Below are positions 12,130-63,702 of a stretch of DNA of 64,000 bases, in pieces. The stretch's first letter is position 1; every line of letters begins with the position of its first letter. The stretch comes from Candidatus Campbellbacteria bacterium. GTDB lineage: Bacteria; Patescibacteriota; Minisyncoccia; Phycocordibacterales; GCA-2747955. A model generated the notes under the pieces. That model did no database searches and had not been told where the DNA came from. It was given only the letters and a program-made list of their open reading frames with translations. A program made the position numbers and the translations under genes. The stretch covers positions 5,983-69,982 of the forward strand of contig PDQZ01000008.1 of NCBI GenBank assembly GCA_002747955.1, given 5' to 3'.

Positions 12130-12204
12130 AGCCCTTCTGTCAGGAGGGGCTGTTTTTTAATGTAGAAACAAAACGCAATTTTGACGAAGTCAAAATTGCG
12201 TTTT
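12130..12204 (+). terminator. two stacked terminator hairpins (CAGCCC...GGGCTG+T-run; AAACGCAATTTTGAC-GAAG-GTCAAAATTGCGTTT)
   Basis: seen in sequence. Confidence 0.5.
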
Positions 12205-12226
12205 GCTAAAAATATTTTTCACAAAC

Positions 12227-12452: not shown

Positions 12453-12458
12453 TTTTTA

Positions 12459-13502: not shown

Positions 13503-13596
13503 ATTTTTATTTTATATTGTTAATATATTTATTATACATAAAATAAAAAAATTTAAAAGCCTTAAATTTACTAATAGTTTATTTTTGAAAAAAGCC

Positions 13597-13651
13597 CATT
13601 TTCGCTCTTTTAAAATTAAAGTTGAGCGAAAATGGGCTTTTTTCAAAAATT
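13597..13651. repeat. long hairpin AAAAAAGCCCATTTTCGCTC...GAGCGAAAATGGGCTTTTTT (partner of 16805-16862)
   Basis: 20-bp stem; same stem with flipped loop at 16805-16862. Confidence 0.6.
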
Positions 13652-13654
13652 TGC

Positions 13655-13660
13655 TATAAT
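13655..13660 (+). promoter_or_regulatory. TATAAT -10 box 6 nt upstream of eno ATG
   Basis: ttgctataattattacATG. Confidence 0.4.
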
Positions 13661-13666
13661 TATTAC

Positions 13667-16781: not shown

Positions 16782-16804
16782 TTTAAAATTTTATAAAACT
16801 TAAA

Positions 16805-16862
16805 TAAAAAAGCCCATTTTCGCTCAACTTTAATTTAAAAAAGTGCGAAAATGGGCTTTTTT
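16805..16862. repeat. long hairpin, flipped-loop partner of 13597-13651
   Basis: AAAAAAGCCCATTTTCGC...GCGAAAATGGGCTTTTTT. Confidence 0.6.
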
Positions 16863-16941
16863 ATTTCCCACACTGTGATAAAATTAAAACAATAAAATGT
16901 CAAATATTGACAGAAATAATAATTAAATATATAATAATTTT

Positions 16942-23750: not shown

Positions 23751-23767
23751 CCAATCCCCACCATTTT

Positions 23768-23890
23768 AAAAACTTGAAAAATTGGATAAAGCGCGCAGAG
23801 ACAAACAAAAAAACCTCCAGAGGTATTTAATATACGGTGAGAAGTTTTTTTGTGCAGTCGACAAAGTTAGGCACTCATTTTTCAAGTTTT
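23768..23890 (-). repeat. MITE-like repeat family A, copy A4; terminal repeat overlaps murA stop codon
   Basis: AAAAACTTGAAAAATTGG ... CATTTTTCAAGTTTT. Confidence 0.6.
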
Positions 23891-25202
23891 AAATTTCTTC
23901 AATTTTTGCTCCGACACTATTTAATCTTTCCACAATATCCGCATACCCCCTTTTAATATTATAAATATCATTCAACCTTGACTCTCCGTTAATTCCCAAA
24001 AGAGTAATCAAAATCGCAGCAGAAGGCCTTAAAGCAGGTGGGCAGTTTATGGTTGCAGGTTTCAGACTCTTGTTTCCTTCAATTTCAATTCTATGTTTAT
24101 CGAGAAGCTTAATTTTAGCCCCCGTTTTTTTCAACAAAGTAAAATACTCAATTCTTTTTTCCCACATCCAGTCATGAATTAAACTTTTTCCCTCAGCTTG
24201 TAAACAAATTGGTACAAAAAATGGTAAGTTATCAATATTGATCCCAGGGTAGGGTAAAGCATGAATTTTATCAGGAAGTGCTTTAAGTTTTTTAAATTTA
24301 GAAATTGAAATATCAGCCAAAACAGTTTTTTTGTTATAAGACAAATACGTTTTTGAAATTTTAAATTCAATCCCCATACTTTCCATTTTCAAAATTTCAA
24401 GTCTTAAAAAGTTAATAGGACATCTTCTAATCACAAAATCTTTTGACTTTGTAGAAACAGCAGCCGAGATAAAAAACATTGACTCAACAGGGTCTTCGCT
24501 GTTGTAGACTTTAATATTTTTATTTATATTTTTCTTTCCATGAACGACAATTTTATCAGACAAAAATTCAATTTTAATACCCAAAGATTTCAAAAAGTAA
24601 ATTACATCCATAACCATATAATTTTGCTGTCCAAAGTGAATTGTAGTTTTTCCAGCAATTCCAGCAGCACAAATTAAAATATTTTCAGTAGCAGTATCAG
24701 ACGCCTCATACATTACAATTTCAGCAGGCTTTAATTTGTCTTTTGAAATATAATATCCGTCATCTTTAACTTTAATTTTCACTCCCAATTTCTCAAGCCC
24801 CGACTTATGAGCTGAAATTGTCCTTTCTCCCATTTTACAACCTCCCGCCTGAGGGATCTTAAAATTGTCCAAGTGATGAACCAAAGGTCCAATGGCCATT
24901 AAAAAAGAACGAATTTTTACAGCAGACTCTGCATATATATTTTTAAAGTTATATTTTTTAGGTGGAGTAAGTTCTAAAACATCATTTTCTTCTCCAATCC
25001 ATTTACACAAAACCCCAATAGATTCAAAAATTTCCAAAACTCGAAAAACTTCTTCGGTTTTAGGAATTTTGTGTAAAGTCGTTTTTCCTTTATTTAAAAG
25101 TGCTGCGTGTAAAAGCCCCATTGCTCCATTTTTGGAAGTGTTGGTGTTAATTTTTCCTTTAAGTTTTCTGCCACCTTCAATTTTTATATTTATTTTTTTC
25201 AT
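23889..25202 (-). CDS. murA: UDP-N-acetylglucosamine 1-carboxyvinyltransferase
   Basis: EPT-family; active-site region QAGGCKMGERTIS; ATG at 25202 preferred over GTG at 25220. Confidence 0.9.
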   Translation of the reverse strand: MKKINIKIEGGRKLKGKINTNTSKNGAMGLLHAALLNKGKTTLHKIPKTEEVFRVLEIFESIGVLCKWIGEENDVLELTPPKKYNFKNIYAESAVKIRSFLMAIGPLVHHLDNFKIPQAGGCKMGERTISAHKSGLEKLGVKIKVKDDGYYISKDKLKPAEIVMYEASDTATENILICAAGIAGKTTIHFGQQNYMVMDVIYFLKSLGIKIEFLSDKIVVHGKKNINKNIKVYNSEDPVESMFFISAAVSTKSKDFVIRRCPINFLRLEILKMESMGIEFKISKTYLSYNKKTVLADISISKFKKLKALPDKIHALPYPGINIDNLPFFVPICLQAEGKSLIHDWMWEKRIEYFTLLKKTGAKIKLLDKHRIEIEGNKSLKPATINCPPALRPSAAILITLLGINGESRLNDIYNIKRGYADIVERLNSVGAKIEEI

Positions 25203-25259
25203 ATACTTAAATTCTAGCACAATTACTTAATATTCAAAAACAAAACAAAAAATGTTATA

Positions 25260-27770: not shown

Positions 27771-27860
27771 TGAAAGCCCGAAATTTAAGAAGGTTTTTTG
27801 GAAAAAGGTAGAAGCGAAGCTTCTACCTTTTTCCAAAAAACCTTCTTAAATTTCGGGTTT
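27771..27860. repeat. long perfect palindrome, family B (copy B3), abutting tRNA-Arg 3' end
   Basis: GAAAGCCCGAAATTTAAGAAGGTTTTTTGGAAAAAGGTAGAAGC-GAAGC-mirror. Confidence 0.65.
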
Positions 27861-27865
27861 TCTTG

Positions 27866-33163: not shown

Positions 33164-34033
33164 ATGAATAATGAAGAAAAAGTAAAACTTCAAAAAGAAA
33201 TTGAAAAACTAGAACAGTTAACTTATAGCCTCAATTTTTGGAAAGACCCTCAAAAAGCTCAAGAGATTTTAGAAGAAATCAAAAAGCTAAATATTTTAAA
33301 AGAAGGTGGGGAAGAAAATGACTTAAAATCTTGTGTTATAAGTATTTTTGCTGGAACCGGTGGAGATGATGCAGAAGATTTTGTAAGAATTTTGTTTCAG
33401 ATGTATTTTAAATTTTGTGAAAAAAACAATTTTGAAATTCAGATTTTATCTCAAAGCCCAAATGAACAAAAAGGTTATAAAAATATTTCTTTTGAAATTT
33501 TAAATAAAGGAAGTTACGGTCTTTTTAAAAATGAAAACGGTGTTCACAGGCTTGTGAGAAAGTCGCCTTTTAACGCAAAGTCAAAAAGGCAAACTTCATT
33601 TGCTAAAGTTGAGGTTTTGCCAAATATTGAACAAAAAGATTTTCAGATCAACGAAAGTGATTTTGAAATTTCATTTGCTAAATCACAAGGTTCGGGTGGG
33701 CAAAACGTAAACAAAAGAGAAACGGCAGTTCGGATTGTTGACAAAAAAAGTGGAATTTCAGTTTTTGTTTCAGAAGGTAGAACTCAAGAGTATAACAAAA
33801 AAAGAGCTTTTGATTTGATTCGTGCTAAACTTTATTTAAAACACAAAGAAGACCAAGAAAAAATCAAACAAGGTTTAAAGGTCAATGACAAAGTTGAAAT
33901 TTCGTGGGGAAGTCAAATGAGAAATTATATTTTTGATCCATATAAAATGATCAAGGACACAAAGCAAAATATTGAAATTACAAATATTCAAAAAGTTTTA
34001 AATGGAGATTTGTCTGATTTTATTAAGTTGTAA
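33164..34033 (+). CDS. prfB: peptide chain release factor 2 (short N-terminus, no programmed frameshift site)
   Basis: SPF tripeptide (RKSPFNAKS) and GGQ motif (GSGGQNVNK). Confidence 0.85.
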   Translation: MNNEEKVKLQKEIEKLEQLTYSLNFWKDPQKAQEILEEIKKLNILKEGGEENDLKSCVISIFAGTGGDDAEDFVRILFQMYFKFCEKNNFEIQILSQSPNEQKGYKNISFEILNKGSYGLFKNENGVHRLVRKSPFNAKSKRQTSFAKVEVLPNIEQKDFQINESDFEISFAKSQGSGGQNVNKRETAVRIVDKKSGISVFVSEGRTQEYNKKRAFDLIRAKLYLKHKEDQEKIKQGLKVNDKVEISWGSQMRNYIFDPYKMIKDTKQNIEITNIQKVLNGDLSDFIKL

Positions 34034-34034
34034 A

Positions 34035-34121
34035 AAAAGCACGAATTTTTGGAAATTTCGGTTGCAAAAAGCATCAACTTAATTGATGCTTTTTGCAACC
34101 GAAATTTCCAAAAATTCGTGC
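34035..34121. repeat. long perfect palindrome (about 85 nt), B-like architecture (copy B7)
   Basis: AAAGCACGAATTTTTGGAAATTTCGGTTGCAAAAAGCATCAA-CTTA-mirror. Confidence 0.6.
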
Positions 34122-34164
34122 CTGTATTTATTTAAATAAATATTTTTTATGTTATAATTACTCC

Positions 34165-35816: not shown

Positions 35817-36593
35817 ATGAAAAATATAAAAGAATGTTTGGAGCCTAGATACCAAAGTACAATTAAATTTGTAATTATTATTATTTTGGCGTTAGTTTTA
35901 ATTGGTGTTTTAGCAAAAGACAAAAGTTATAACATCAACTTGTCTGAATTAAAAGACAACACTATCAGAATAAAAGGGGAAGCTGAAAAAATTGTTGCTC
36001 CCGATGTTGCTTCTGTTTCTTTTGAAATTACAAGAAAATCAAAATCAACAAAAGACGCCACAGAATATGTAAACAAAAGAATTAAACAATTAACAGACAT
36101 GCTTTCTTATGAAGGTATAAATCAAAAAGATTTTAAAACAGCATCATACAATGTTCATCCTGAGTATAATTATACAAAAGGCAAAAGAACTTTTTCAGGT
36201 TACAGAGTAAGTCAAAGAATTGATGTAAAAATCAGAGACCTTGATAATGTCTCAACAATTTTAACAAAAATAAATCAAGTTGGAGTTGATAATGTTTCAA
36301 GATTAAAGTTTTTCATTGACGACGACAAAGAGATCAAAGAAGAGTTAAGAAAAAAAGCAATCGAAAACTCAAAGCAAAAAGCTGAAAAAATCGCAAAAGA
36401 TTTAGGTGTAAAACTTGATGAAATTGTTGGATTTTCAGAAGAAGCAAACAGAGATTACGAACCAAGATATCTATCAAATATGAAATTGGCTGGTGCGAAA
36501 GAAGATGCAGTGGAGCTTAATCAAGCTGTAATTCCGGTTGGGTCAAATAAGATTACTTCAACGATTTACATTACATACAAAATCTCCAACTAG
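35817..36593 (+). CDS. SIMPL/DUF541-family periplasmic protein
   Basis: IRIKGEAEKIVAPDVASVSFEI...GYRVSQRIDVKIRDLDNV. Confidence 0.65.
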   Translation: MKNIKECLEPRYQSTIKFVIIIILALVLIGVLAKDKSYNINLSELKDNTIRIKGEAEKIVAPDVASVSFEITRKSKSTKDATEYVNKRIKQLTDMLSYEGINQKDFKTASYNVHPEYNYTKGKRTFSGYRVSQRIDVKIRDLDNVSTILTKINQVGVDNVSRLKFFIDDDKEIKEELRKKAIENSKQKAEKIAKDLGVKLDEIVGFSEEANRDYEPRYLSNMKLAGAKEDAVELNQAVIPVGSNKITSTIYITYKISN

Positions 36594-36596
36594 ACA

Positions 36597-36918
36597 AAAG
36601 CCATAAATTAGTCCACAACTTCGTTGACTTCATGTAAAAATATTTTCAACATACTACCAAGTATGTCTCAAATATTTTTCATTCGTCGCCTCGTTGTGAA
36701 TCTAATTTATGACTTTTTTAAAAATTGAAAAATTAGTGCTCAACTTCGCCGACTGCACATAAAAATTCCCTCACCGTATGTCAAATACGGCTCGGGGATT
36801 TTTTGTTTGCTTCCGCGTTATCCATCTTGTTTTTCAAGTTTTTCCGAAGCAGAAAGTCTGGTTTAGTCTCAATAGAAGCATCTAATTTCTGATGTTTTTA
36901 AAAAACTTGAAAATTATA
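36597..36918 (+). repeat. tandem array of about 2.5 family-A MITE-like units
   Basis: units 36601-36720, 36716-36848, partial 36849-36915; not CRISPR (units over 110 bp, no spacers). Confidence 0.6.
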
Positions 36919-36956
36919 AAAAATCAAATAACGCACAGCGTTATTTGATTTTCATT

Positions 36957-37577
36957 TTAAATGTCTCGAATATCTATCGGTTTTAATTGTTTTGGTTTTG
37001 TTTCAGAATCCATTTCATAAATAGTTTGTCTTTTCTTTCCATTGTTAAGTTTATGTGTGTGCACAAATTTTCTATCGACAATTTTAAATTCATCTTCTCC
37101 ATCATACTTTGCATCAGCATCAACAGCGTAAGGGTCTGTCTCCAAAACTTCTACATCACCCATTGACCATTTTTTATTTGAAGAATAAATAAGTGGGTAT
37201 CCATAATTTTTAGCATTTCCTTTTGCGTAAACATAAATAAACAATTCAGGGAAAGAGTCGTTATCCAAATCAGAAATCTCAACTTTTCTAATCTCTCCAC
37301 CTTTTATATTCACTGTTTGCGGATTACTGTTTTTAGTATATCCTTCTGGTTTAATTTTTATTACATCAGGTTTACCTTCAAGAGTTTCTGTTGTAACTAA
37401 AAATTTAACCCCATTCATTTCTTTGGTTGTTAAACTATAAGTAACATCTGCCTTTCTTTCAGGATTGTTTTTTTCCAAAATCGGAAGTTTTCCATTTTTA
37501 ATTTTAAAAATAACCAAAGCCACAACAAGAAGAACTAAAAGAGCTATTAAAGTATAAATAATTATTTTCTTTTTCAT
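36957..37577 (-). CDS. secreted/membrane-anchored hypothetical protein
   Basis: N-terminal TM/signal; terminator hairpin 36921-36955 downstream. Confidence 0.45.
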   Translation of the reverse strand: MKKKIIIYTLIALLVLLVVALVIFKIKNGKLPILEKNNPERKADVTYSLTTKEMNGVKFLVTTETLEGKPDVIKIKPEGYTKNSNPQTVNIKGGEIRKVEISDLDNDSFPELFIYVYAKGNAKNYGYPLIYSSNKKWSMGDVEVLETDPYAVDADAKYDGEDEFKIVDRKFVHTHKLNNGKKRQTIYEMDSETKPKQLKPIDIRDI

Positions 37578-37695
37578 ATTGTTATATTATTTCCGCTTTT
37601 ACGGTAATTTCATTATAGCATTAAAATTTTATAAAATCTAGATTTTAAACAACCAAAAAACAAAATCAGGCGAAGCCTGATTTTGCTTTCAATAT

Positions 37696-38430
37696 TTATT
37701 TTTTCCTAATCAAAATAATCGGTGTTTTCTCATTTCCTTGGCCCATTGGATTATCAAGCAAAGTTTTTCTTGCAACTTCTTCTGAAACTGGCAAGTTTTT
37801 ACTTTTTCCTAAAATCTCAACGTTGATATTATTCGCGTCAGCAATACAAGCAGGTACTCCAAATTCATCTTCAATTTTCTGACATGATAAATCAGGATTA
37901 TCAGGATAAATTTTCGCAAACTCATCAAAAGGTGGCATTGCTCCATAATACGGCCCATCAATTTGTTCAATATTATTTCCCGCGATTTTATAAAAATACC
38001 CCTTTTTAATTCCAAAAATTTTCAAAATCGCTGTTAGGGGAAGTCCAATAATTGTTGCCAAAAACATTCTCCACCAACCTGTTACAAAAATAGCCGCCTG
38101 AATTTTTTCAGGAATGGCAAAAGCAGGATCATTTTTGTAGGCTTTTTCTCCCATATTAAAGCGAATAAGTCTGTAAATAATTTTAGCCAAAATACCAGGT
38201 TTTAAAAGAGACTTGTGCATCACTCGACCTTCTGAAATTGTTAAAAACTTTTCAGAAATGGCGATGAAATCTCCTTTTTGATATTCTTTTTTAATTTCTT
38301 CATAAATTGGCGTGATATCTTCTTTAATCGAAATCAAATGAGTTTTCACAGGATATCTCAAAAAAATATCTTTACCAACTTTTATTTCAAGTTCTTTTCC
38401 GCCGTTTGGTTGCTTTTTTACTTCTGTCAT
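37696..38430 (-). CDS. hypothetical protein, weak resemblance to CofE/F420-ligase-like fold
   Basis: GDFIAISEKFLTISEGRV pattern only. Confidence 0.2.
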   Translation of the reverse strand: MTEVKKQPNGGKELEIKVGKDIFLRYPVKTHLISIKEDITPIYEEIKKEYQKGDFIAISEKFLTISEGRVMHKSLLKPGILAKIIYRLIRFNMGEKAYKNDPAFAIPEKIQAAIFVTGWWRMFLATIIGLPLTAILKIFGIKKGYFYKIAGNNIEQIDGPYYGAMPPFDEFAKIYPDNPDLSCQKIEDEFGVPACIADANNINVEILGKSKNLPVSEEVARKTLLDNPMGQGNEKTPIILIRKK

Positions 38431-38503
38431 ATTTTTAATTTTAACATATTAAATTTTAATAAACAAAAAATAATTTTATTTTTTATGTTATAATATTTTC
38501 AAT

Positions 38504-40012
38504 ATGAATAATAAAGAACATTCAAGCAGACAAAAAGAAATCAGAAATCTAAGAATTCAAAAAATTAAGAATCTAGAAAGTTTGGGATTAAGCGCTTACT
38601 TAAATCCAAAAGACACAAAACCAACACACACTTTAAAAGAAGTAGTGGATAATTTTGCAAAATTCAAAAGGCAAAAGAAAGACAAGAAATACAAACTTGT
38701 AGGAAGAATCATGATCAAAAGGGGAGCAGGGAAAATTGCTTTTGTAAAGTTTTTTGATGGAACAGAATATTTTCAAGCAGTTCTACAAGCCGATGTTTTG
38801 GGTAAAAAGAAAATGAAAATTTTTGATAAAAATTTTGACATGGGAGATTTTGTCATTTTCCAAGGAACTTTATTTAAAACTAAAAAAGGTGAAAAATCTT
38901 TGAAAGTTACTTCATTTAAAATGGCTGGAAAATCTATTTTGCCACTTCCAGAAAAATGGCACGGTATCACAGACATTGAAGAAAAATACAGAAAAAGATA
39001 TCTAGACGTTCTGTCTGATCAAAATGCTTTTGATAAATTCAAAAAACGGTCAGAAGTAATTCGTGAAATAAGAAATTTTATGGACAATGAAGGTTTTTTA
39101 GAAATTGAAACTCCTATTTTGCAAAACCAAGCTTCAGGAGCAATGGCTGAAACTTTCAACACTCACCACAACGATTACAACCTAGACATGGTTTTAAGAA
39201 TTTCACTTGAAGCTGAACACAAAATAGTTATGGCGGGAGGTTATCCAGCAGTTTACGAGATTGGAAAAAACTTCAGAAACGAAGGATCAGATTCAACACA
39301 TATTCAAGAGTTTACGATGATCGAATGGTATAAAGCTTACAGGGGCCTTGATTACAATATTAAACTTACAGAAAAACTTTTAAAACACTTGGCTAAAAAA
39401 GTTATCAAAAAAACTGTTTTTGAAATTAAAGACGAAAACGACAAAAAAGTAAAAGTGGACTTTTCAAAAGAATGGAAAAAAGTAAAGTTCAACGATTTGA
39501 TTAAAAAATATGCCAAAATAGATGTTCAAAAAGCAACCAGAAAAGAACTTGAAAAAAAAGCAATGGAACTTGGTGGAGTTAAAAAAGAAATTTTAAAAAT
39601 GTCTCACGGAAATTTACTTGATTTTATTTACAAAAAATCAGCTCGAAAAAAATTGATCAACCCAACTTTTGTTTTAAATTATCCAGGAAGTTTAAAACCT
39701 CTTGCAATTCAAAACGAAGATGGAACATCAGAAGTAGCGCAACTTGTAATCGGTGGAGCAGAAGTGACAAACCAATATGCCGAACTTGTAAACCCACTTG
39801 TTCAAAGAAAACTTTTAGAAGATCAGCTAAAAGCTAAAAAGTCAGGGGATAAAGAAGCCATGGATTTCAACTCAGATTTTTTAGAAGCAATGGAATATGG
39901 AATGCCTCCAATGACAGGATTTGGAATGGGAATAGATAGATTGATGGCGATTTTTACGGAGCAGGATAACTTACGAGATACGATATTGTTTCCCATCATC
40001 AAACCTAAATAA
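38504..40012 (+). CDS. lysS: lysyl-tRNA synthetase, class II
   Basis: OB anticodon-binding domain, FRNEGSDSTHIQEFTMIEWY, GGAEVTNQYAELVNP, GFGMGIDRLMAIFT. Confidence 0.9.
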   Translation: MNNKEHSSRQKEIRNLRIQKIKNLESLGLSAYLNPKDTKPTHTLKEVVDNFAKFKRQKKDKKYKLVGRIMIKRGAGKIAFVKFFDGTEYFQAVLQADVLGKKKMKIFDKNFDMGDFVIFQGTLFKTKKGEKSLKVTSFKMAGKSILPLPEKWHGITDIEEKYRKRYLDVLSDQNAFDKFKKRSEVIREIRNFMDNEGFLEIETPILQNQASGAMAETFNTHHNDYNLDMVLRISLEAEHKIVMAGGYPAVYEIGKNFRNEGSDSTHIQEFTMIEWYKAYRGLDYNIKLTEKLLKHLAKKVIKKTVFEIKDENDKKVKVDFSKEWKKVKFNDLIKKYAKIDVQKATRKELEKKAMELGGVKKEILKMSHGNLLDFIYKKSARKKLINPTFVLNYPGSLKPLAIQNEDGTSEVAQLVIGGAEVTNQYAELVNPLVQRKLLEDQLKAKKSGDKEAMDFNSDFLEAMEYGMPPMTGFGMGIDRLMAIFTEQDNLRDTILFPIIKPK

Positions 40013-40132
40013 AACTTAAAAAATTGGCGACTCACTTTGTCGACCGCATAAAAAATTCCTTCACCATATATTAAATATGGCTCAGGAATTTTTTATTTGT
40101 CTCCTCGTGATTCATCCAATTTTTTAAGTTTT
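40011..40132 (+). repeat. MITE-like repeat family A, copy A6; perfect 17-bp TIRs AAAACTTAAAAAATTGG/CCAATTTTTTAAGTTTT; starts on lysS stop codon
   Basis: seen in sequence. Confidence 0.7.
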
Positions 40133-40149
40133 ATGATATAAGGATTGAA

Positions 40150-40247
40150 AAAACAAGCCCGAAATTTTGAAGCAAATTTTTGGAAAAAAGAACAAGCAAC
40201 GCTTGTTCTTTTTTCCAAAAATTTGCTTCAAAATTTCGGGCTTGTTT
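40150..40247. repeat. long perfect palindrome family B (copy B4)
   Basis: near-identical to 53379-53473 with compensatory arm changes. Confidence 0.7.
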
Positions 40248-40257
40248 TCAACCAACC

Positions 40258-40719
40258 CTAAATTTCACCATCAATCTGCTCAATTCTTCTTTGATGTCTT
40301 TGTTTATTTGAAAAAGGTTCAGAAAGCCAAATTTTTAAAATTTTACCTAAATTTATACTTTTAACAAACCTTGCTCCGATTGATAAAACATTTGCGTTGT
40401 TATGTTCTTTTGAAAGTTTTAAAATTTTTGGATTTCCTCCGTAGTAAACTGTTGCTCTGACATTTTTAAATCTATTCGCAACCATAGCTTCTCCTTGCCC
40501 TGAACCACCAAAAATAATAGCCAAATTTTCAGGATTTTCAGAAATTTTTTCTCCGGCTTTTTTGATAAACAAAGGGTAGTCATCATCAGGATTGTAAGTT
40601 TCAGCCCCTAAATCTTTCACATTGTACTCTGGATATTTTTTCTTTAAAATTTTTTTTGTTTTTTCTTTTAATTTAAACCCAGCGTGATCTGTAGCCAAAT
40701 ATATTGTTTTATTTTCCAT
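40258..40719 (-). CDS. rpiB: ribose-5-phosphate isomerase B
   Basis: IYLATDHAGFKLKEK...IIFGGSGQGEAMVANR. Confidence 0.85.
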   Translation of the reverse strand: MENKTIYLATDHAGFKLKEKTKKILKKKYPEYNVKDLGAETYNPDDDYPLFIKKAGEKISENPENLAIIFGGSGQGEAMVANRFKNVRATVYYGGNPKILKLSKEHNNANVLSIGARFVKSINLGKILKIWLSEPFSNKQRHQRRIEQIDGEI

Positions 40720-40856: not shown

Positions 40857-41125
40857 CCGAGCACAAAAACCCAAAGCGACAGCTTTGGGTTTTTCCGTGC
40901 TCCGGCCGGAGAAGAGAGGATTCGAAAAGAGCGCAGCCCTGTTTTTTCTCTGCGTGGCTGCGTCCGAGAAAAAACGGCAAGCGGCGGGCCCGCGAGTTCT
41001 TAACGAACGACGAACGCAGTGAGGAAGTAAAACCCAAAGCGACAGCTTTGGGTTTTTCCGTGCTCCGGCCGGAGAAGAGAGGATTCGAAAAAAGCGGACT
41101 TTTCAAAAGTCCGCTTTGGTTTTAA
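40857..41125. repeat. tRNA-Ser 3'-end-derived inverted and direct repeats (two about 75-bp copies) plus segment shared with 57960-58030
   Basis: GGAGAAGAGAGGATTCGAA (revcomp of tRNA T-arm/acceptor) at 40895 and 41059; AAAACCCAAAGCGACAGCTTTGGGTTTTT hairpin twice. Confidence 0.6.
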
Positions 41126-47118: not shown

Positions 47119-47140
47119 TTTAAAGTGGTTTTTGAGAAAT

Positions 47141-47233
47141 GAAAGCCCGAAATTTTGGCAGAATTTTTTGAAAAAGTTGAAAGGCTTTGCCTTTCAACTT
47201 TTTCAAAAAATTCTGCCAAAATTTCGGGCTTTC
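47141..47233. repeat. long perfect palindrome family B (copy B5)
   Basis: GAAAGCCCGAAATTTTGGCAGAATTTTTTGAAAAAGTTGAAAGG-CTTTG-mirror. Confidence 0.7.
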
Positions 47234-47268
47234 TATTTTTTAAACAAAATTATGTTATAATTTTAAGT

Positions 47269-53679: not shown

Positions 53680-55170
53680 AATTATAAGAGTTTGATCCTA
53701 GCTCAGGATGAATGCTGGCTGTGTGGATAAGGCATGCAAGTCGAATGCATTTAGTTGCATGGCGGACGAGGTAGTAACACGTAGGACTACGTACCCCAAA
53801 GTCAGGGATAACCCATCGAAAGGTGGGATAATACTTGATATCTCTTCGGAGGAAAGATTTATCGCTTTGGGAACGGCCTGCGGAGTATCAGCTAGTTGGT
53901 AAGGTAATGGCTTACCAAGGCTACGACGCTTAGGGGAGGTGAGAGCCTGACCCCCACCGATGGGACTGAGACACGGCCCATACTCCTACGGGAGGCCGCA
54001 GTCGAGAATCTTCCACAATGGACGAAAGTCTGATGGAGCGACACAGCGTGATGGATGAAGTTCATAAGAATGTAAACATCTTTTATATGTGAAAAAGTTT
54101 ATTGATATTAACATATGAATAAGGGGTTGCTAACTACGTGCCAGCAGCAGCGGTAATACGTAGGCCCCGAGCATTATCCGGAATCATTGGGCGTAAAGGG
54201 TCCGTAGGCGGTTTAATTAGTCTTTCGTTAAAGCACCAGGCTCAACCTGGGACAGGCGAAGGAAACGGTTAAACTAGAATCAAAAAGAGGTGTGTGGAAC
54301 TCATAGTGTAGGGGTGAAATCCGTTGATATTATGGGGAACACCAAAAGCGAAGGCAACACACTGGTTTTGTATTGACGCTGAGGGACGAAACCCTGGGTA
54401 GCGAATGGGATTAGATACCCCAGTAGTCCAGGGCCTAAACGATGCATACTAGCTTTTTAAATTTCAATCATTTAAGAGGCGAAGCTAACGCGTTAAGTAT
54501 GCCGCCTGGGGAGTACGGTCGCAAGGCTAAAACTCAAAGGAATAGACGGGGACTCGCACAAGTAGTGGATCATGTGGCTTAATTCGTAGGTACACGAAGA
54601 ACCTTACCCAGATTAGATATTATATTCATGCTACACATTGGAGACAAATAGTAGATATTGTGGTATAACAGGTGTTGCATGGCCGTCGTCAGTTCGTGGC
54701 TTGAGCTGTTCCTTTAAGTAGGGAAACGAACGCAACCCTCATCGTTTGTTATAAGTGTCAAACGAGACTGCCTCGCCTTAAGTTTTTAAATAAAATTTTG
54801 AAGATTTAAGGCGGGGAGGAAGGTGGGGATGACGCCAGGTCAGCATGACCCTTGATGTCTGGGGCTGCACACGTGATACAATGGGCAGGACAACAAGACG
54901 CAATACGGCAACGTGGAGCAAATCTTTCAAACCTGTCCTAAGTTCGGATCGGGGGCTGAAACTCGACCCCGTGAAGTTGGAATTACTAGTAATCGCAGGT
55001 CAGCTATACTGCGGTGAATATGTTCTCGAGTCTTGTACTCACCGCCCGTCAAGTCAAGGGAGTTGGGAGTACCCAAAGTTCGTGTTTATCACGACCTAAG
55101 GTAAGCTCAGTAACAGGGACTAAGTCGTAACAAGGCACGGCTAGCGGAAGCTGGTCGTGGATTATTTCAA
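53680..55170 (+). rRNA. rrs: 16S ribosomal RNA, complete, not followed by tRNA or 23S within 500 nt
   Basis: AGAGTTTGATCCTAGCTCAG 5' end; GTGCCAGCAGCAGCGGTAATAC; GGATTAGATACCC; ...AAGTCGTAACAAGG...GGATTATTTC 3' end lacking CCTCC. Confidence 0.95.
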
Positions 55171-55344
55171 AGAAGATGGTCATAAATGACTTTATTGGTT
55201 GAAACAATTCTATAATTGTTAGACTTTCATCTGGAGTCTTTAAATCAGATGCGCTTATAGTAAGATATGCGACACTTCTAATTAGTCGGGGCACAAGAAA
55301 GATTTTTTTCTATAACCAATCACTAAATTACAATATTTTATTTC

Positions 55345-55480
55345 AAAAAACTGCAGAAATTGGCGAAAATCTTTGTCAATTTTATAAAAAAAAACTCTCA
55401 CCGTATATTTAATACGGCTCGAGATTTTTTTTATTCATTTCCTCGATTCTCATCCAATTTCTGCTGTTTTTTAACTTTTT
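55345..55480 (+). repeat. MITE-like repeat family A, copy A7 (TIRs AAAACTGCAGAAATTGG / CCAATTTCTGCTGTTTT with compensatory change)
   Basis: seen in sequence. Confidence 0.6.
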
Positions 55481-55667
55481 AAAAAACACCAAAAGGTGTT
55501 TTTTTGTATTAAATTTAATAATTATTAAGGCAAGACCTGTTAACTGATTTTCGGGTATAGTACAAACCAAAAAAAGCTTAAAAAATAAAGCAAAGAAGCA
55601 AAAATATTAGCTTGTTTTATCAACCTCTTTACTGTATAATGTATCTATTATAAACAATAATAAATAT

Positions 55668-56417: not shown

Positions 56418-56454
56418 AAAGATAAAAAACACCGAAAGGTGTTTTTTATTAAAA

Positions 56455-57025
56455 GTGAAAAACCACCAGCTTTAGCTGGTGTGTGCGTTTAAAAACGTAG
56501 TTAGTATAATTTCCGCAAGGAAAGTGTTTTAACAATTAATATAATCTAAAATGAATCAAAGACTATATCACTTAAATCATAGCACATGGATTTGTGATTA
56601 CCACATTGTTTGGTGTCCAAAATACAGAGGAAATGTGTTGGAAGACAAGTATATTAAAAATCAATTAAAAACAATGTTTAAAAATATTGTAAAGTGGAAA
56701 GGTTTAATTATTCACGCTTGGCACATTGGTGATAATCATATACATTTATACATATCAATCCCGCCAAAATATTCAACTGCATACACAATACAAATTTTGA
56801 AAGGAAAAACTTCAGCATGGATAAAAAAGAAAACAAAAAAATTTCCAAGGGGAACTTTATGGCAAAGAGGATATTTTGTATCAACAATTGGTTTAAACAA
56901 ACACCAAATTAAAAACTACATTAACGATCAATCTCACCACCAAATAGAACTGACTCAGAAAAAGTTATTCTAGCCCACAACGTGGGCAAGATAAAAGCGA
57001 CCAGCGTTTAGCTGGTCGTTTTTAC
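56455..57025 (+). mobile_element. IS200-type insertion sequence (tnpA only) with subterminal hairpins
   Basis: left hairpin CACCAGCTTTAGCTGGTG (56457-56480), right hairpin GACCAGCGTTTAGCTGGTC (57000-57021) flanking tnpA. Confidence 0.7.
56551..56973 (+). CDS. tnpA: IS200/IS605-family Y1 (HUH) transposase TnpA
   Basis: HUH motif HIGDNHIHLYISIPPKYS and catalytic Tyr region LWQRGYFVSTIG; 140 aa. Confidence 0.85.
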   Translation: MNQRLYHLNHSTWICDYHIVWCPKYRGNVLEDKYIKNQLKTMFKNIVKWKGLIIHAWHIGDNHIHLYISIPPKYSTAYTIQILKGKTSAWIKKKTKKFPRGTLWQRGYFVSTIGLNKHQIKNYINDQSHHQIELTQKKLF

Positions 57026-57067
57026 TTTTTTAAATGCCAAAAGATTTTTTTATGTTAAAATATATTT

Positions 57068-59608: not shown

Positions 59609-59935
59609 ATGACAAGATCAATTAAAAAAGGGCCATACGTGGACGAAAATTTAATGAAAAAAATAGCTGGAAAAAAACCAGAAGACACAGGTACAATTAA
59701 AACTTGGGCTCGTGCTTCTCAAATTCACCCAGACATGATTGGATTTACTTTTGGAGTACACAATGGTAGAAAACACATAGATGTTTTTGTAACAGAAGAA
59801 ATGGTAGGACACAGACTAGGAGAATTTGCAGCAACAAAAACTTTCCATAGACATGGAGGTAAAATGCAAAAAGAACTAGATCAAAAGAAAAGAGAAGCAG
59901 AAATCTCAGCAGCAAAAGCTGCAAAGGCTGCTTAA
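59609..59935 (+). CDS. rpsS: 30S ribosomal protein S19 (with A/K-rich C-terminal extension)
   Basis: [14 protein letters not shown]...[27 protein letters not shown]. Confidence 0.9.
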
Positions 59936-59953
59936 TAAATAAATATTATTATT

Positions 59954-60295
59954 ATGAAAGTTAAAGCAAGTATTAAAAATTTAAGATCTACACCAAGAAA
60001 AGCAAGATTGATTGCTGATTTTATTCGTGGTAAAGACTTAAAAATAGCAAAAGCAGAACTTAAATTTGTGAACAAAAAAGCAGCAGCTGACTTTTTAGAT
60101 TTATTAAAATCAGCAGAAAGCAACGCAAAAAACAATTTTGATTTAAAAGCAGATAACTTATTTGTTGAATCAATTTCAGTTGACGCAGGAGCTGCTTTAA
60201 AAAGACACAGAGCTGGTTCAAATGGTAGAGCTTTACCATTTAAAAGAAGATTATCAAATATAAATCTTGTTTTATCAGAAAAAGAAACTAAATAA
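59954..60295 (+). CDS. rplV: 50S ribosomal protein L22
   Basis: KASIKNLRSTPRKARLIADFIRGK. Confidence 0.9.
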   Translation: MKVKASIKNLRSTPRKARLIADFIRGKDLKIAKAELKFVNKKAAADFLDLLKSAESNAKNNFDLKADNLFVESISVDAGAALKRHRAGSNGRALPFKRRLSNINLVLSEKETK

Positions 60296-60308
60296 TCAAT
60301 TATAAATT

Positions 60309-60971
60309 ATGACACATATAGTACATCCGTATGCACACAGATTGGGAGGACTTAGAGATTGGAAATCTCAATGGACTTTCTCAAATAAAGAAGACTACAA
60401 AAGGTTTTTAAAAACTGACCAAATCGTTAGAGCTTTTTTAGAAAAAGAATTAGGAAATTCTTTTGTTTCTTCAATCCAATTCCAAAGACACTCAGACGAC
60501 AGATATGTTGTAAAAATTTACACATCAAGAGTTGGGATGATTGTTGGAAAAGATGGAAAAGGAGTTGAAAAACTTACACAAAAAGTTAAAAAACAACTAA
60601 AGAAAAACAATCTAGTTGTACCAACAAACTTAAAAATTGATTTAGAAGAAGTTTCTTCTCCTGATTCTGATGCTGGAATTGTTGCAGCAACAGTTAAAGA
60701 AGGTTTAGAAAGAAAAATGCCTTTCAGGAGAGTTCTAAAAACAGCGATTGAAAAATCAATGGCAGACAGAAACGTAAAAGGAATTAAAATTTCTGTTTCA
60801 GGAAGACTTGGGGGAGCAGATATGGCTAGAAAAGAATACCTTAAAAAAGGAAGAATTCCACTTTCAACATTCAGAGCAGATGTTGATTACAGAGAAGCAA
60901 GAGCAAATCTTCCATATGGTGTTATTGGTGTGAAAGTGTGGATTTACAGAGGTGAAATTTTTGATAAATAA
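60309..60971 (+). CDS. rpsC: 30S ribosomal protein S3
   Basis: KH domain GMIVGKDGKGVEKL; C-terminal GRLGGADMARKEYLKKGRIPLSTFRADVDY. Confidence 0.9.
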   Translation: MTHIVHPYAHRLGGLRDWKSQWTFSNKEDYKRFLKTDQIVRAFLEKELGNSFVSSIQFQRHSDDRYVVKIYTSRVGMIVGKDGKGVEKLTQKVKKQLKKNNLVVPTNLKIDLEEVSSPDSDAGIVAATVKEGLERKMPFRRVLKTAIEKSMADRNVKGIKISVSGRLGGADMARKEYLKKGRIPLSTFRADVDYREARANLPYGVIGVKVWIYRGEIFDK

Positions 60972-61010
60972 TTCAACTTTTGTTTAAAATTATAAATTAT
61001 AAAAAATATT

Positions 61011-61436
61011 ATGTTATTTCCAAATAAAGTAAAACATAGAAAATGGCAAACTGGTAGAAAAAACTCAGTTAAGCTTGCAGAAAAAGTAGCAACAAAAGGA
61101 ACAAAAGTTTCATTTGGAGATTTTGGTTTAAAAGCAATGTCTCAAGCAAGAGTTACTTCAAACCAAATCGAAGCAGCCAGAAAAGCAATTAAAAGACATG
61201 TAGGAAAACTTGGAACAGTTTACATCAGAGTTTTTCCAGACAGGCCTGTAACACAAAAAGCAGCAGAAGTTGGTATGGGTAAAGGTAAAGGTGATCCACA
61301 ACACTTTTGTGTGGAAGTTTTCACAGGAAGAGTTTTGTTTGAAGTTACAGGGGTGAAAGAAGAAGTAGCTCGTGAAGCTTTGAGAAAAGGTGGAACAAAA
61401 TTACCAGTTAAAACAAAAGTTATTGAAAGAAAATAA
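61011..61436 (+). CDS. rplP: 50S ribosomal protein L16
   Basis: MLFPNKVKHRKWQTGRK ... RMGKGKGDP-like GMGKGKGDPQHF. Confidence 0.9.
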   Translation: MLFPNKVKHRKWQTGRKNSVKLAEKVATKGTKVSFGDFGLKAMSQARVTSNQIEAARKAIKRHVGKLGTVYIRVFPDRPVTQKAAEVGMGKGKGDPQHFCVEVFTGRVLFEVTGVKEEVAREALRKGGTKLPVKTKVIERK

Positions 61437-61445
61437 TATTTTATT

Positions 61446-61622
61446 ATGAAAGATTTAATCAAAAAAAGTACAAAAGACTTAACAAAAGAGCTTAAAGCTT
61501 TAAAAGAAAAAAACAGAGAAATTTCTTTTTCAGCAGGAGGAGCTGTTTCAAAAGACTCTTTTGAAAAAAGAAAAAACAGAAAACAAATTGCAAAAATTTT
61601 AACTGTGTTAAATAAAAAATAA
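61446..61622 (+). CDS. rpmC: 50S ribosomal protein L29 (58 aa, below ORF-track cutoff)
   Basis: manual translation [26 protein letters not shown]...; position between rplP and rpsQ. Confidence 0.75.
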
Positions 61623-61626
61623 AATT

Positions 61627-61866
61627 ATGACAACAGATAAAAATATTAAAACATTTACAGGAGTTGTTTCTTCAGACAAAATGAAAGATACTACTGTTGT
61701 GAATGTAGAATCTTACACAAAACACCCAAAATACGGAAAATTTGTTAAAAAAACAAAAAAATTCAAAGTTCACGATGCTGGAAACACAGCAAAAGTGGGT
61801 GACAAAGTAGAAATCACAGAGACAAAACCAATCTCTAAAACTAAAAGATTTATTTTAGTAAAATAA
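61627..61866 (+). CDS. rpsQ: 30S ribosomal protein S17
   Basis: [41 protein letters not shown]. Confidence 0.9.
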
Positions 61867-61896
61867 TTTGGTTATTAAATTTATTAACAAAACAAT

Positions 61897-62268
61897 ATGA
61901 TACAACCACAAACAATAGTAAAAGTAACAGACAACTCAGGGGCTTTGCAAGCAAGAGTATTTAAAGTTTTAGGAGGTTCAAAAAAAAGATATGCAAGAAT
62001 TGGAGATATTGTTGTTGCTTCAGTGCAATCAGCACAACCAAGAAAAACTGTAAAGAAAAAAGATGTTGTTTACGGGGTTGTTGTAAGGCAAAAACAACCT
62101 TTCAGAAGAAAAGATGGTTCTTATATTTATTTTGATGAAAACTCAATCGTTTTGATCTCAAAAGAAAAAAAAGAACCTATCGCAGGTAGAATTTTCGGAC
62201 CAATTCCAAGAGAAGTTCAAGAACTTGGTTATCAAAAAATTGCTTCTTTAGCACCAGAAGTACTTTAA
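61897..62268 (+). CDS. rplN: 50S ribosomal protein L14
   Basis: MIQPQTIVKVTDNSGA... Confidence 0.9.
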   Translation: MIQPQTIVKVTDNSGALQARVFKVLGGSKKRYARIGDIVVASVQSAQPRKTVKKKDVVYGVVVRQKQPFRRKDGSYIYFDENSIVLISKEKKEPIAGRIFGPIPREVQELGYQKIASLAPEVL

Positions 62269-62312
62269 TTTATCTACTTAAAATTATTATTAAAAAACCT
62301 ATAAAAAATATT

Positions 62313-62621
62313 ATGAAGTTTAAAACAGGAGACAATGTAATTGTGATTGCCGGAAAAGACAAAGGCAAAGAATCTAAAATAGTAAAAATTTTCTCAAAAG
62401 AAAATAAGGTTGTTTTAGAAGGAGTGAATTTAAAAAAGAAACATATAAAAGCCTATGGACAACAAGAAGGTGGTATTTTAGAAATTCCATCTCCAATCGA
62501 TATTTCAAATATTGCTATTATTGATCCAAAAACTAAAAAAGCTTCAAGAGTAGGTTTTACATTTGACAAAAAAGGTAAAAAAATCAGAATTGCCAAAAAG
62601 TCAGGAAGTGAAATTAAATAA
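62313..62621 (+). CDS. rplX: 50S ribosomal protein L24
   Basis: KFKTGDNVIVIAGKDKGKESKIVKI (KOW motif). Confidence 0.85.
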   Translation: MKFKTGDNVIVIAGKDKGKESKIVKIFSKENKVVLEGVNLKKKHIKAYGQQEGGILEIPSPIDISNIAIIDPKTKKASRVGFTFDKKGKKIRIAKKSGSEIK

Positions 62622-62630
62622 TAAAATATT

Positions 62631-63185
62631 ATGAATAATCAAGGAGTAAAAGAAAAAATAAATACAGGATTTGAAATTTTGAAAGATAAAATTTCAATCA
62701 AAAACAAAATGCAAAGTCCAAAGTTGGAGAAAGTAACTATTTCTGTGGGGGTTGGAAAATTCAGAGATGACAAAAGAAAACTTGAGGTTGTACAAGACAG
62801 ACTTGAAAAAATCACAGGGCAAAAACCAGTTGTAGCTGCAGCTAAAAAATCAATCGCTACTTACAAAGTAAGAGAAGGTGATGTTTCAGGTTACAAAGTA
62901 ACTTTAAGAGGAGAACAAATGTATTCATTTGTTGACAAACTTATCAATATTTCTTTACCTAGAACAAAAGACTTTAGAGGAATTTCTAAAAAATCTGTTG
63001 ATCAAATGGGTAACTTAACAATTGGGGTTAAAGAACATATTGTTTTTGCTGAAACACCAGACGAAGAGATTAAAGATATTTTCGGACTATCTGTAACCTT
63101 AACTTCAACAGCAGAAAGCAAAGAAGATGCGATTACATTTTTTGAATACATTGGTATTCCTTTTAAAAAAGAAGAAACTAAATAA
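62631..63185 (+). CDS. rplE: 50S ribosomal protein L5
   Basis: KVTISVGVG...YKVTLRGEQMYSFVDKLINISLPRTKDFRG. Confidence 0.9.
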   Translation: MNNQGVKEKINTGFEILKDKISIKNKMQSPKLEKVTISVGVGKFRDDKRKLEVVQDRLEKITGQKPVVAAAKKSIATYKVREGDVSGYKVTLRGEQMYSFVDKLINISLPRTKDFRGISKKSVDQMGNLTIGVKEHIVFAETPDEEIKDIFGLSVTLTSTAESKEDAITFFEYIGIPFKKEETK

Positions 63186-63191: not shown

Positions 63192-63440
63192 ATGAAAAAA
63201 GATATACACCCAGAAAATAGAGAAATTGTTTTTGTTGATAAAGAAGCAAACTATGTTTTAAAAGCATTGTCTACTTTAAAAACAGAAGATACTTACGAAT
63301 TTGAAGGAAAAGAATATCCAGCAGTTTTTGTTGAAATTTCTTCAGCATCACACCCTTTCTATACAGGAAATACAAAAACTCTTGATACTGCAGGGAGAGT
63401 TGATAAGTTTAAGAAACGATTCGAAAAGGCAAAGAGCTAA
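63192..63440 (+). CDS. rpmE: 50S ribosomal protein L31 (non-zinc type) at the position normally held by S14
   Basis: [14 protein letters not shown]...[24 protein letters not shown]. Confidence 0.8.
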
Positions 63441-63563
63441 AAATTTGAAAAATGAGCAGTCAACTTCGTTAGAGGTACAAAAAATCCCCTCACCGTATAT
63501 CAAATACGACTCGGGGATTTTTGTTTGCTTCCTCGTTATCCATCTTGTTTTTCAAGTTTTTTT
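63438..63563 (+). repeat. MITE-like repeat family A, copy A8; begins on rpmE stop codon
   Basis: AAAAATTTGAAAAATGAG ... CATCTTGTTTTTCAAGTTTTT; central AAAAATCCCC...GGGGATTTTT hairpin. Confidence 0.65.
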
Positions 63564-63577
63564 GTGTTTGGGAATTG

Positions 63578-63623
63578 ACGTCGAGCACCATTGTTTTTTT
63601 AAAAAAAACAATGGTGCTCGACA
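63578..63623. repeat. perfect palindrome GTCGAGCACCATTGTTTTTTT/AAAAAAACAATGGTGCTCGAC
   Basis: seen in sequence. Confidence 0.5.
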
Positions 63624-63702
63624 TTAAATTTCTGCCGTTTTTTAAAAACTTGAAAAACACCAAAAAACAAAGGTGTTTTTCTTTTACTCTACAACACAAA
63701 AA

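Follow-up and report, generated by a model that had tools for sequence, protein, structure and literature searches.

A 64,000-nucleotide stretch of a Candidatus Campbellbacteria metagenome-assembled genome (MAG) of ~30% G+C (contig PDQZ01000008.1, positions 5,983 to 69,982; the whole stretch is referred to here as the window) carries an intergenic repeat in nine full copies and one half copy, with two weak fragments in addition, as detected with a profile hidden Markov model (HMM) built from the copies listed in a preliminary description of the same DNA. We find that this repeat, 125–135 nt in length, forms a single rod-shaped hairpin whose fold is under selection, and that the family to which it belongs is multi-copy, oriented and phylogenetically patchy, with members in several phyla. 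Chance is excluded as an explanation, and a degenerate pattern for the core of the repeat has nine matches in the window with none expected from 100 shuffles. The data also speak against a MITE, or miniature inverted-repeat transposable element, with terminal inverted repeats (TIRs), against a simple terminator and against any Rfam family. We consider it plausible, with about as much room for doubt as for belief, that the element is a structured extragenic palindromic repeat of the REP/REPIN/ERIC class with an architecture of its own, co-transcribed in 3' untranslated regions (UTRs).

Fold of the repeat and its copies in the window

Loci beyond the window (sampled loci, labelled L and a number where they need to be told apart) were gathered by a degenerate sequence pattern, re-scored with nhmmer and then searched with a covariance model, which finds at least ~140 copies in the sampled contigs. 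The consensus fold of 70 non-redundant homologues, computed with RNAalifold, contains 40 base pairs, 37 of them with compensatory changes. Read inward from its foot, the rod has first the outer stem P1 (~20–26 bp), then a loop, the 3-bp helix P3, a loop, the 12–13-bp helix P2, a loop, and a 5-bp tip (CCGTA/TACGG) with an apical loop of 5–7 nt. In the internal loop between P1 and P3, which has one G-C pair within it, CTTYGTY of the 5' arm faces YCCTC of the 3' arm; on the sense strand the P3/P2 loop is TTC opposite TT, and the P2/tip loop is a 3 x 3 loop of TCA opposite CTC. Alignment columns 19–41 pair with columns 120–147 to form P1, in which 19 of 20 pairs show compensatory changes, and covariation also extends to helices 4 and 5, of which 95% and 99%, respectively, is paired. 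Over the alignment as a whole 90.6% of cells are paired, compared with 65.0% in shuffles, none of 500 of which reached the observed value, and sliding the partners by 1–3 columns lowers pairing to 34–48%. The covariation score is 0.628 versus 0.171 for shuffled data and at most 0.16 for slid partners, with 727 double changes against 219.

Conservation is distributed unevenly along the rod, the termini being the least conserved part across lineages and the internal loops and tip the most conserved. Some of this apparent invariance, that of AAAAA, TCA, GTA/TAC, TTTTT and CCTCG, is imposed by the search patterns, as the alignment set is itself partly pattern-selected; CTTYGT, CTC and CCTCG are nevertheless conserved even in loci gathered by a pattern that does not contain them. 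The A-run pairs with the T-run inside helix P2 as part of one continuous hairpin, and in copies recovered only by the profile both runs are replaced by other complementary sequences that covary. What the preliminary description had read as a TIR is the outer half of P1, and the paired termini with compensatory changes that it noticed in one copy are real and general across the homologues. In the copy that it had singled out, which lies directly behind lysS, the terminal pairing is a perfect 19 bp (40009–40027 with 40116–40134) that includes the lysS stop codon, and G40107 pairs with C40035 to close P1. The lysS gene itself is the open reading frame (ORF) at 38504–40012, encoding a class II lysyl-tRNA synthetase of 502 amino acids.

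The covariance model scores eight of the nine full window copies at 98–134 bits; the copy at 36718–36848 is not reported by this model on the plus strand, apparently through overlap with its neighbour, and is placed on the basis of its nhmmer score. Every copy in the preliminary list exists, so that the multi-copy intergenic family it proposed is borne out, and the groups it counted as "2.5" and "1.5" copies are indeed tandem, although they consist of two full copies plus a fragment and of one full copy plus a half copy, respectively. Identity between window copies ranges from 53 to 86% in the identity matrix, and all are structurally intact. The abutting copy 36718–36848 has only 62% identity to its neighbour 36592–36722 and 81% to the copy at 63433–63564. 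The most similar pair in the window (86%), the copies 10417–10544(+) and 12331–12461(-), are inverted relative to each other and flank a two-gene SPFH/Band 7 operon (10776–12110), a layout resembling a composite transposon that may be coincidental. An exchange at one sampled locus also deserves mention: L160 (11312–11533) is orthologous to L120 (5888–6021) and L164 (6412–6545), all three being from related populations with near-identical flanks, and in the L160 copy the 5' half of the inner stem has been swapped for a different sequence and 88 nt have been inserted at the tip, which, judged from the sequences, suggests recombination between copies at the conserved core.

The internal loops are rich in pyrimidines on the sense strand (77%, versus 50% in paired columns), and their antisense counterparts are tandem G.A/A.G motifs (at the tip GAG...UGA, in P3 GGA/GAC) plus G.U. 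Folding is better on the antisense strand in 67 of the 70 copies, with a mean of -46.6 versus -35.4 kcal/mol under RNA parameters and the same direction under DNA parameters; for the copy behind lysS the minimum free energies are -43.7 kcal/mol on the sense strand (z = -10.2) and -56.3 kcal/mol on the antisense strand (z = -14.0). This energy difference is not independent evidence, because it is a direct result of the purine content of the loops. Sense-strand A.C mismatches, which are G.U on the antisense strand, outnumber sense-strand G.U by 89 to 57, with 34 sequences leaning in one direction and 14 in the opposite one. Two explanations are left, namely that the bottom strand is important as DNA or that selection has given the sense RNA flexible pyrimidine loops, and we do not choose between them. 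Several candidates for an antisense or RNA-level identity were tried and rejected: an independent antisense small RNA, because no -10 hexamer is enriched at a fixed distance, with terminators lying on that side of the repeat; an antisense small ORF, "M-x-x-E-E-x-N-K-K", because family variants carry stops in frame (in the alignment read by eye); and self-cleaving ribozymes, the K-turn and domain V of group II introns, because the antisense likeness (GAGCCGUA...UACGGU) fails across variants and no Rfam model matches. An anti-Shine-Dalgarno mimic (CCUCG) and a Rho-loading site were set aside as well, the required hairpin arguing against the latter.

Position, polarity and distribution

An ORF on the same strand has its end no more than 45 nt 5' of the conserved C of CTTYGT in 78 of 141 copies, the distance being almost always at most ~30 nt, with a mode of 23–26 nt; of the other copies, most stand at a contig end or form the second unit of an array, or their core escaped the regular expression. 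When the outer stem is extended copy by copy, roughly three in four of the copies that can be assessed have the foot of the hairpin 0–3 nt past a stop codon of the same strand, and this spacing holds even between unrelated outer-stem sequences. In rpmE orthologues the last codons of the gene form the 5' arm of P1. Only ~6 copies adjoin a gene end by their 3' side, and the stop-codon rule extends to loci labelled Clostridia, where it is seen in 14 of 21 copies. The stop codons upstream of the repeat are TAA in 61 cases, TAG in 17 and TGA in none of the 78, as against a background in the same loci of 201, 71 and 27 (9% TGA; Fisher p = 0.002). The siting at stop codons stated in the preliminary description is thus correct, and the lysS TAA lies inside the stem of the copy behind it. 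That description had called the hairpin bidirectional; the element is nevertheless polar, as the profile HMM scores window copies at 87–118 bits in the forward orientation and at 23 bits or less as reverse complement.

Polarity follows the neighbouring gene and not the replichore, because four of the ten window copies are on the minus strand whereas the sign of the GC skew essentially does not change along the window; an orientation linked to replication was rejected on the same grounds. Counted without redundancy, 31 copies have a co-directional gene as their downstream neighbour and 20 a convergent one, and among the window copies convergent junctions are enriched (five of seven assessable sites). 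One copy in the window is at an uncertain gene end: the 3' end of the copy at 1864–1983(-) lies 7 nt from the stop of a gene for an SNF2 helicase (40–1857, +), and the 41-codon ORF that its 5' end overlaps (1962–2087, -) is a gene-caller prediction of a very basic peptide (MAKRATGIDKKR...KKKLKK) with no name or family match. Should this ORF not be a real gene, the copy would have the "wrong" polarity relative to the helicase gene that it adjoins.

Six window sites have a canonical terminator or palindrome 3' of them, at a distance of 6–25 nt in four cases (after the copies starting at 10417, 40007, 55344 and 63433). As the usual order in the window is stop codon, repeat, terminator, the sense strand is fully co-transcribed as a 3' UTR or intercistronic hairpin, and one copy follows the 16S rRNA gene, so that the link is to transcript ends in general and not to ORFs only. 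Some copies are only 13–45 nt 5' of the next gene, and at L035 one copy lies between homologues of L14 and L24 and another after an L5 homologue; the repeat is therefore unlikely to be a strong terminator. A terminator scan of one region made no call at repeat copies, and T-runs are present in most copies.

The groups of the candidate phyla radiation (CPR) in which the repeat is found comprise Paceibacteria/Paceibacterota, Campbellbacteria (including the complete genome CP011215), Kaiserbacteria, Uhrbacteria, Magasanikbacteria, Peregrinibacteria, Gracilibacteria and Saccharibacteria. A further 21 copies (44–95 bits) are on gut-MAG contigs labelled Clostridium, Clostridia or Eubacteriales, and single contigs with the repeat are labelled Bacteriovoracaceae, Gammaproteobacteria and Planctomycetales, all of these assignments being those of the record titles only, without independent confirmation. 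Within this range the distribution is patchy. No repeat stands behind a lysS orthologue of 77% identity, two other lysS orthologue loci (34 kb) contain no copies, and none is present in the 69 kb around six homologues of rpmE, of which at least four are Patescibacteria-like, or at four loci with homologues of an IS200 transposase (22 kb), which makes ~125 kb without a copy, mostly from Patescibacteria. The preliminary description had allowed that the units might be conserved gene-specific UTRs, and an ancient gene-specific UTR was rejected here on the strength of the six rpmE-homologue and three lysS-orthologue loci without the repeat. It had also proposed looking for empty sites in relatives: there is such an absence behind the 77%-identical lysS, but synteny is already lost there, so that it does not define an exact empty site.

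Against Rfam 15 the whole window gives no match at the gathering threshold to the repeat, and with E values up to 10 over 36500–40300, which includes three copies, the only matches are generic, miRNA-like ones on a neighbouring perfect palindrome. Collections of viral contigs, phages and plasmids contain no match to the repeat, and no description of it was found in the searchable literature. The earlier suggestion of an undescribed family in an AT-rich reduced genome therefore stands as to its absence from Rfam and the searchable literature, but it was too narrow as to host, since the family occurs in many Patescibacteria phyla and in Clostridia-labelled MAGs.

Table 1. Positions in the window of the repeat, its parts and neighbouring palindromes
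Feature	Position	Strand	Basis or remark
Complete rod hairpin directly behind lysS	40009–40134 (profile bounds 40007–40136)	+	Covariance model, 134.1 bits
lysS stop codon TAA, inside the outer stem	40010–40012	+	Sequence
P1 5' arm (left "TIR" and inner part GCGACTCAC)	40009–40035	+	Pairs with 40107–40134
5' junction CTTTGTC (family CTTYGTY)	40035–40041	+	Nearly invariant in 70 homologues; never in any search pattern
Central hairpin P2/P2b, ATAAAAAATTCCT-TCA-CCATA-loop-TATGG-CTC-AGGAATTTTTTAT	40048–40096	+	Covariation
Conserved internal loop TCA/CTC of this copy	40061–40063 and 40081–40083	+	Alignment conservation
P3 3' arm and 3' junction GTCTCCTCG (family NNN-YCCTCG)	40099–40107	+	Alignment columns 112–120
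P1 3' arm (right "TIR")	40107–40134	+	Pairing with the 5' arm
Full copy, 5' end overlapping the end of the 41-codon ORF 1962–2087(-)	1864–1983	-	99.8 bits
Full copy beginning on the scpA TAA (scpA 9717–10421)	10417–10544	+	98.1 bits
Full copy starting right after the TAG of a 347-aa gene, 12459–13502(-)	12331–12461	-	107.8 bits
3' half copy, in tandem with 12331–12461	12227–12306	-	nhmmer 50 bits, E = 1e-14, model positions 51–131
Full copy beginning on the murA TAA (murA 23889–25220, -)	23764–23895	-	104.5 bits
Full copy starting right after the TAG of a SIMPL/DUF541 gene (35817–36593), unit 1 of tandem pair	36592–36722	+	115.9 bits
Full copy abutting 36592–36722, of a different subfamily	36718–36848	+	nhmmer 118 bits
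Full copy 171 nt 3' of the 16S rRNA gene	55344–55474	+	117.6 bits
Full copy beginning on the rpmE TAA (rpmE 63192–63440)	63433–63564	+	112.3 bits
Weak 3'-end fragment, direct-repeat family D19	36878–36902	+	nhmmer E = 1.2
Weak 3'-end fragment, direct-repeat family D19	63617–63645	+	nhmmer E = 8.7
Canonical terminator 6 nt after copy 55344	55481–55506
Palindrome with 26-bp arms, after copy 63433	63575–63627
Terminator/long palindrome 13 nt after the lysS copy	40150–40248
Terminator/long palindrome after copy 10417	10569–10633
Terminator/palindrome after copy 12331, beyond the half copy	12127–12210
Terminator/palindrome ~70 nt after the tandem pair 36592/36718	36920–36952
Second palindrome family	27772–27862, 34032–34128, 40150–40248, 47130–47244, 53377–53475		Gene and tRNA 3' ends

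Affinities, origin and role

Small palindromic repeats at gene ends are, as a kind, already known. REPIN hairpins carry compensatory changes, are clustered in tandem and persist over long periods (PMC3116915; 10.1101/2021.07.10.451892), and repeats at gene 3' ends, among them ERIC at ~127 bp, are co-transcribed and affect mRNA stability (PMC3184786). The rod shares with the REP/BIME/REPIN-RAYT systems an extragenic, multi-copy, 3'-end hairpin with compensatory changes, tandem clustering, slow duplication and a presumed recognition of the folded strand (PMC3116915, PMC3337134, 10.1101/2021.07.10.451892). It differs from them in that a REPIN is built of two conserved ~25-nt REPs at its ends with a variable middle, whereas the rod has variable ends with conserved loops and tip; in addition, no RAYT gene was found in the window, and the rod is strictly polar with respect to genes and spread over several phyla. 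The likeness to Correia and ERIC (IRU) elements that the preliminary description had drawn holds at the level of the broad class of structured extragenic palindromes, these elements being imperfect palindromes of ~105–160 bp that are co-transcribed and have reported effects on mRNA processing and stability (PMC3184786), but not at the level of architecture, since they have conserved TIRs and TA duplications and are each confined to one family or genus, whereas the rod has variable termini and no consistent duplication and crosses phyla. Similarly, SPRITE and terminator-like repeats are hairpin modules that recur at the ends of genes in low-GC genomes (PMC3184786), while the rod is longer, has conserved internal loops and usually has a separate terminator downstream. 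What is not known from REP, ERIC or Correia elements is conserved loops with variable ends, anchoring at TAA or TAG, a cross-phylum range and strand asymmetry.

If the rod is nevertheless a repeat of this broad class, as we prefer to think, it would have spread slowly through a copying mechanism that recognizes the folded single strand by its conserved loops and tip and not by terminal sequences. The surviving copies would be those in a tolerated or useful polarity, and in mRNA the hairpin may act as a 3' barrier or attenuator that starts where translation ends, as has been reported for REP and ERIC. Propagation is favoured by the patchy distribution and by the following observations. Abutting tandem arrays of different subfamilies occur in the window (36592/36718), at L161 (arrays of three and of two units) and at L169 (three units), and contigs of the PDWI01 metagenome assembly carry copies 84–90% identical to particular window copies behind different genes. 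A number of observations weigh against this interpretation. The flanks of 48 copies show no consistent target-site duplication, and as synteny is already lost at 77% LysS identity there is no pair of filled and empty sites with exact boundaries. A mobilizing protein was not found, and the one HUH transposase of the window is an IS200 TnpA. The range of 53–86% identity with intact structures fits locus-by-locus selection for a host function at least equally well, and the pairing of the repeat with rpmE, murA and the DUF541 gene recurs in distant lineages: it is behind rpmE in the window and in the lineage of L128, L174 and L171, behind murA in the window and in one Saccharibacteria contig, and behind the DUF541 gene in the window and in one Peregrinibacteria contig, although the rpmE pairing is not general, given the six rpmE-homologue loci without it. 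Finally, the transcribed strand is the poorer folder, and the role as stabilizer or attenuator rests on analogy.

Another possibility is that the rod is a host cis-acting RNA motif of the 3' UTR, in which a specific protein would bind the pyrimidine-rich loops of the sense-strand hairpin and so couple the end of translation to protection of the mRNA 3' end, decay or attenuation, the copies having arisen by rare duplication and been kept locus by locus through selection. The retention of ~90% pairing by compensatory change in old copies, a polarity and a 0–3 nt stop spacing that are fixed in all lineages, the rpmE orthologues that build the outer stem from the last codons of the gene, the recurrent pairings, the copy that follows the 16S rRNA gene and suggests a link to transcript ends, and the avoidance of TGA all favour it. 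We nonetheless regard it as doubtful, as genomes closely or moderately related, and the six rpmE loci, lack the repeat, tandem arrays of two or three different units are hard to justify functionally, all-pyrimidine internal loops are atypical of folded functional RNAs, and the opposite strand folds better. Similarly tentative is the proposal that the rod represents a new class of structured nucleic-acid element with dedicated protein machinery, marking or targeting the position after TAA and TAG stops in the ultra-small genomes of Patescibacteria and in reduced Firmicutes genomes. Its active form may then be the bottom-strand DNA or a bound RNA with tandem G.A loops, and, if this were true, the rod would be a stop-codon-anchored counterpart of the attC and REPIN systems and not a variant of them. 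The attC sites of integrons, such as the ~120-nt repeats of Vibrio cholerae, begin at or next to the stop of the preceding ORF, and it is their bottom strand that has the better-defined fold. The rod resembles these sites (attC is described in PMC5737381) in that its identity lies in structure while its sequence varies, in having a similar length, and in that it too adjoins the preceding stop and folds better on the bottom strand. It has neither the R'' (RYYYAAC) nor the R' (GTTRRRY) box of attC sites, only C41 and G120 being conserved at the inner end of P1 and the outer ends being A/T-rich and variable in the alignment of 70 homologues; there are no co-oriented cassette arrays, no integrase was found, and rods lie on both strands behind lysS, murA, rpmE, scpA and the 16S rRNA gene.

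That likeness is part of the argument for a single-stranded DNA substrate of recombination or transposition, with the bottom strand active as in attC or in HUH-cut REP and IS200-type hairpins, and with the polarity relative to mRNA a by-product of selection against transcribing the more stable hairpin. The stability of the antisense strand, its loops composed wholly of tandem G.A/A.G plus G.U, the excess of A.C over G.U, an identity that resides in structure with variable stem sequence and a start at the preceding stop would all be expected, and since no antisense promoter signal was detected the antisense strand, if relevant, would act as DNA. We think it unlikely, however, because the strand energy difference follows from the loop purines, the attC core sites and cassette arrays are absent and the neighbours are housekeeping genes on both strands, orientation is independent of replication direction, unlike that of HUH systems that depend on the lagging strand, and no integrase, RAYT or other recombinase could be linked to the repeat. 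Among ~55 window ORFs compared with Pfam, taken from outside the ribosomal-protein cluster at 59609–63185, there was no integrase and no recombinase other than the IS200-type TnpA, and scans of 1.4 Mb for Y1 transposase motifs, made with regular expressions, found only the unrelated IS200. The preliminary description had instead called the element MITE-like, with 17-bp TIRs. A classical MITE would be derived by deletion from a DDE transposon and mobilized in trans by way of its TIRs, here of 17–19 bp, with a TA or TAA target. The size of ~125 bp, the perfectly paired termini of some copies, the restriction of upstream stops to TAA and TAG, the TA...TA that bounds several copies and the existence of ERIC-type MITEs of ~127 bp with TA flanks (PMC3184786) are compatible with this, and yet we hold it to be highly improbable. 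Termini that are lineage-specific and covary around a conserved interior are the opposite of transposase-binding TIRs, the TA flanks are inconsistent and cannot be separated from extension of the stem, the element is strictly polar with respect to genes, and there are no near-identical copies, as no window pair exceeds 86% identity, which counts against a recent or classical transposon. Nor was an autonomous parent, or a split copy with 5' and 3' halves around an ORF, found in 1.3 Mb of loci. Equally hard to credit is that the rod is nothing but a duplicated intrinsic terminator, bidirectional and of unusual length, a version of the portable bidirectional terminator suggested in the preliminary description. 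An A-run and a T-run do flank the central hairpin in most copies, and the position at gene ends and the enrichment of convergent junctions in the window agree with such a role, but the runs are stem, pairing with each other and giving way to other complementary sequences where copies were recovered without a pattern; the P1 and P3 pairings outside the runs covary strongly and require the full-length strand; conserved loop sequences are not needed by a terminator; separate canonical terminators often stand downstream; and some copies precede a co-directional gene closely or lie within a ribosomal-protein operon.

The IS200-type insertion sequence of the window, at 56455–57030, encodes a 140-aa Y1 HUH transposase (tnpA, 56551–56973, +) that matches Pfam Y1_Tnp (7e-32) and NCBIfam transpos_IS200 (119.8 bits) and scores 30.9 bits, versus a cut-off of 80, against REP_Tyr_transpos. 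Its end hairpins, CCACCAGCTTTAGCTGGTG on the left and GACCAGCGTTTAGCTGGTC on the right, have the form CCAGC-N-TTT-AGCTGG and are unrelated to the rod. The IS200/IS605 ends and their ORF-less derivatives are, like the rod, hairpin-based and strand-specific, and a TnpA of this type occurs in the same window, but the insertion sequence has short hairpins of its own, the loci of TnpA homologues have no rods and rod orientation is independent of replication. A RAYT or IS200 as mobilizer was accordingly rejected, the insertion sequence not being flanked by rods either. Homologues of TnpA with 65–78% identity are mostly on contigs of 0.6–1.5 kb, and one identical protein occurs in at least three genomic contexts, from which we conclude that IS200 is active in Patescibacteria.

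Patescibacteria genomes are among the smallest and most gene-dense of bacterial genomes, and yet the repeat fills ~2% of the window, where roughly one gene in seven has a copy behind it. A fold maintained through compensatory change in no fewer than eight candidate phyla, and also in gut MAGs labelled Clostridia, points either to a long-lived intragenomic replicator of new design or to an unrecognized layer of control at 3' ends. The host organisms are mostly unculturable, and the covariance model, the positional rule that puts the foot at a TAA or TAG stop, and the strand asymmetry make the question of what binds or moves the repeat a testable one. On the practical side, the family breaks assemblies and misleads the prediction of terminators and ORF ends, and its masking or annotation in CPR genomes is advisable.

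Other features of the window

A second repeat family in the window consists of near-perfect palindromes with arms of 44–56 nt that are 91–100% complementary and share AAAGCCCGAAATTTTGG. These look like bidirectional terminators, and yet they are a sequence family in their own right. Smaller hairpins or terminators also recur, namely AAAAAACACC-RAAA-GGTGTTTTTT (55481–55506, 56425–56448), GCCCATTTTCGC (13569–13662, 16802–16866) and AAACCCAAAGCGACAGCTTTGGGTTT (40865–40893, 41029–41057). The intergenic space of this genome is largely made up of repeated hairpin modules, because many of its gaps fold at -50 to -120 kcal/mol.

Downstream of the 16S rRNA gene (53680–55172) neither a 23S gene nor tRNAs are found within the remaining 8.8 kb, so that the rRNA genes are unlinked. 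The leucyl-tRNA synthetase encoded at 6338–9205 has a NUDIX hydrolase domain inserted at residues 268–388, and several close homologues of LysS, 640–720 amino acids in length, carry a DUF2000 (PF09391) or HD domain (PF01966) that the 502-residue enzyme of the window does not have.

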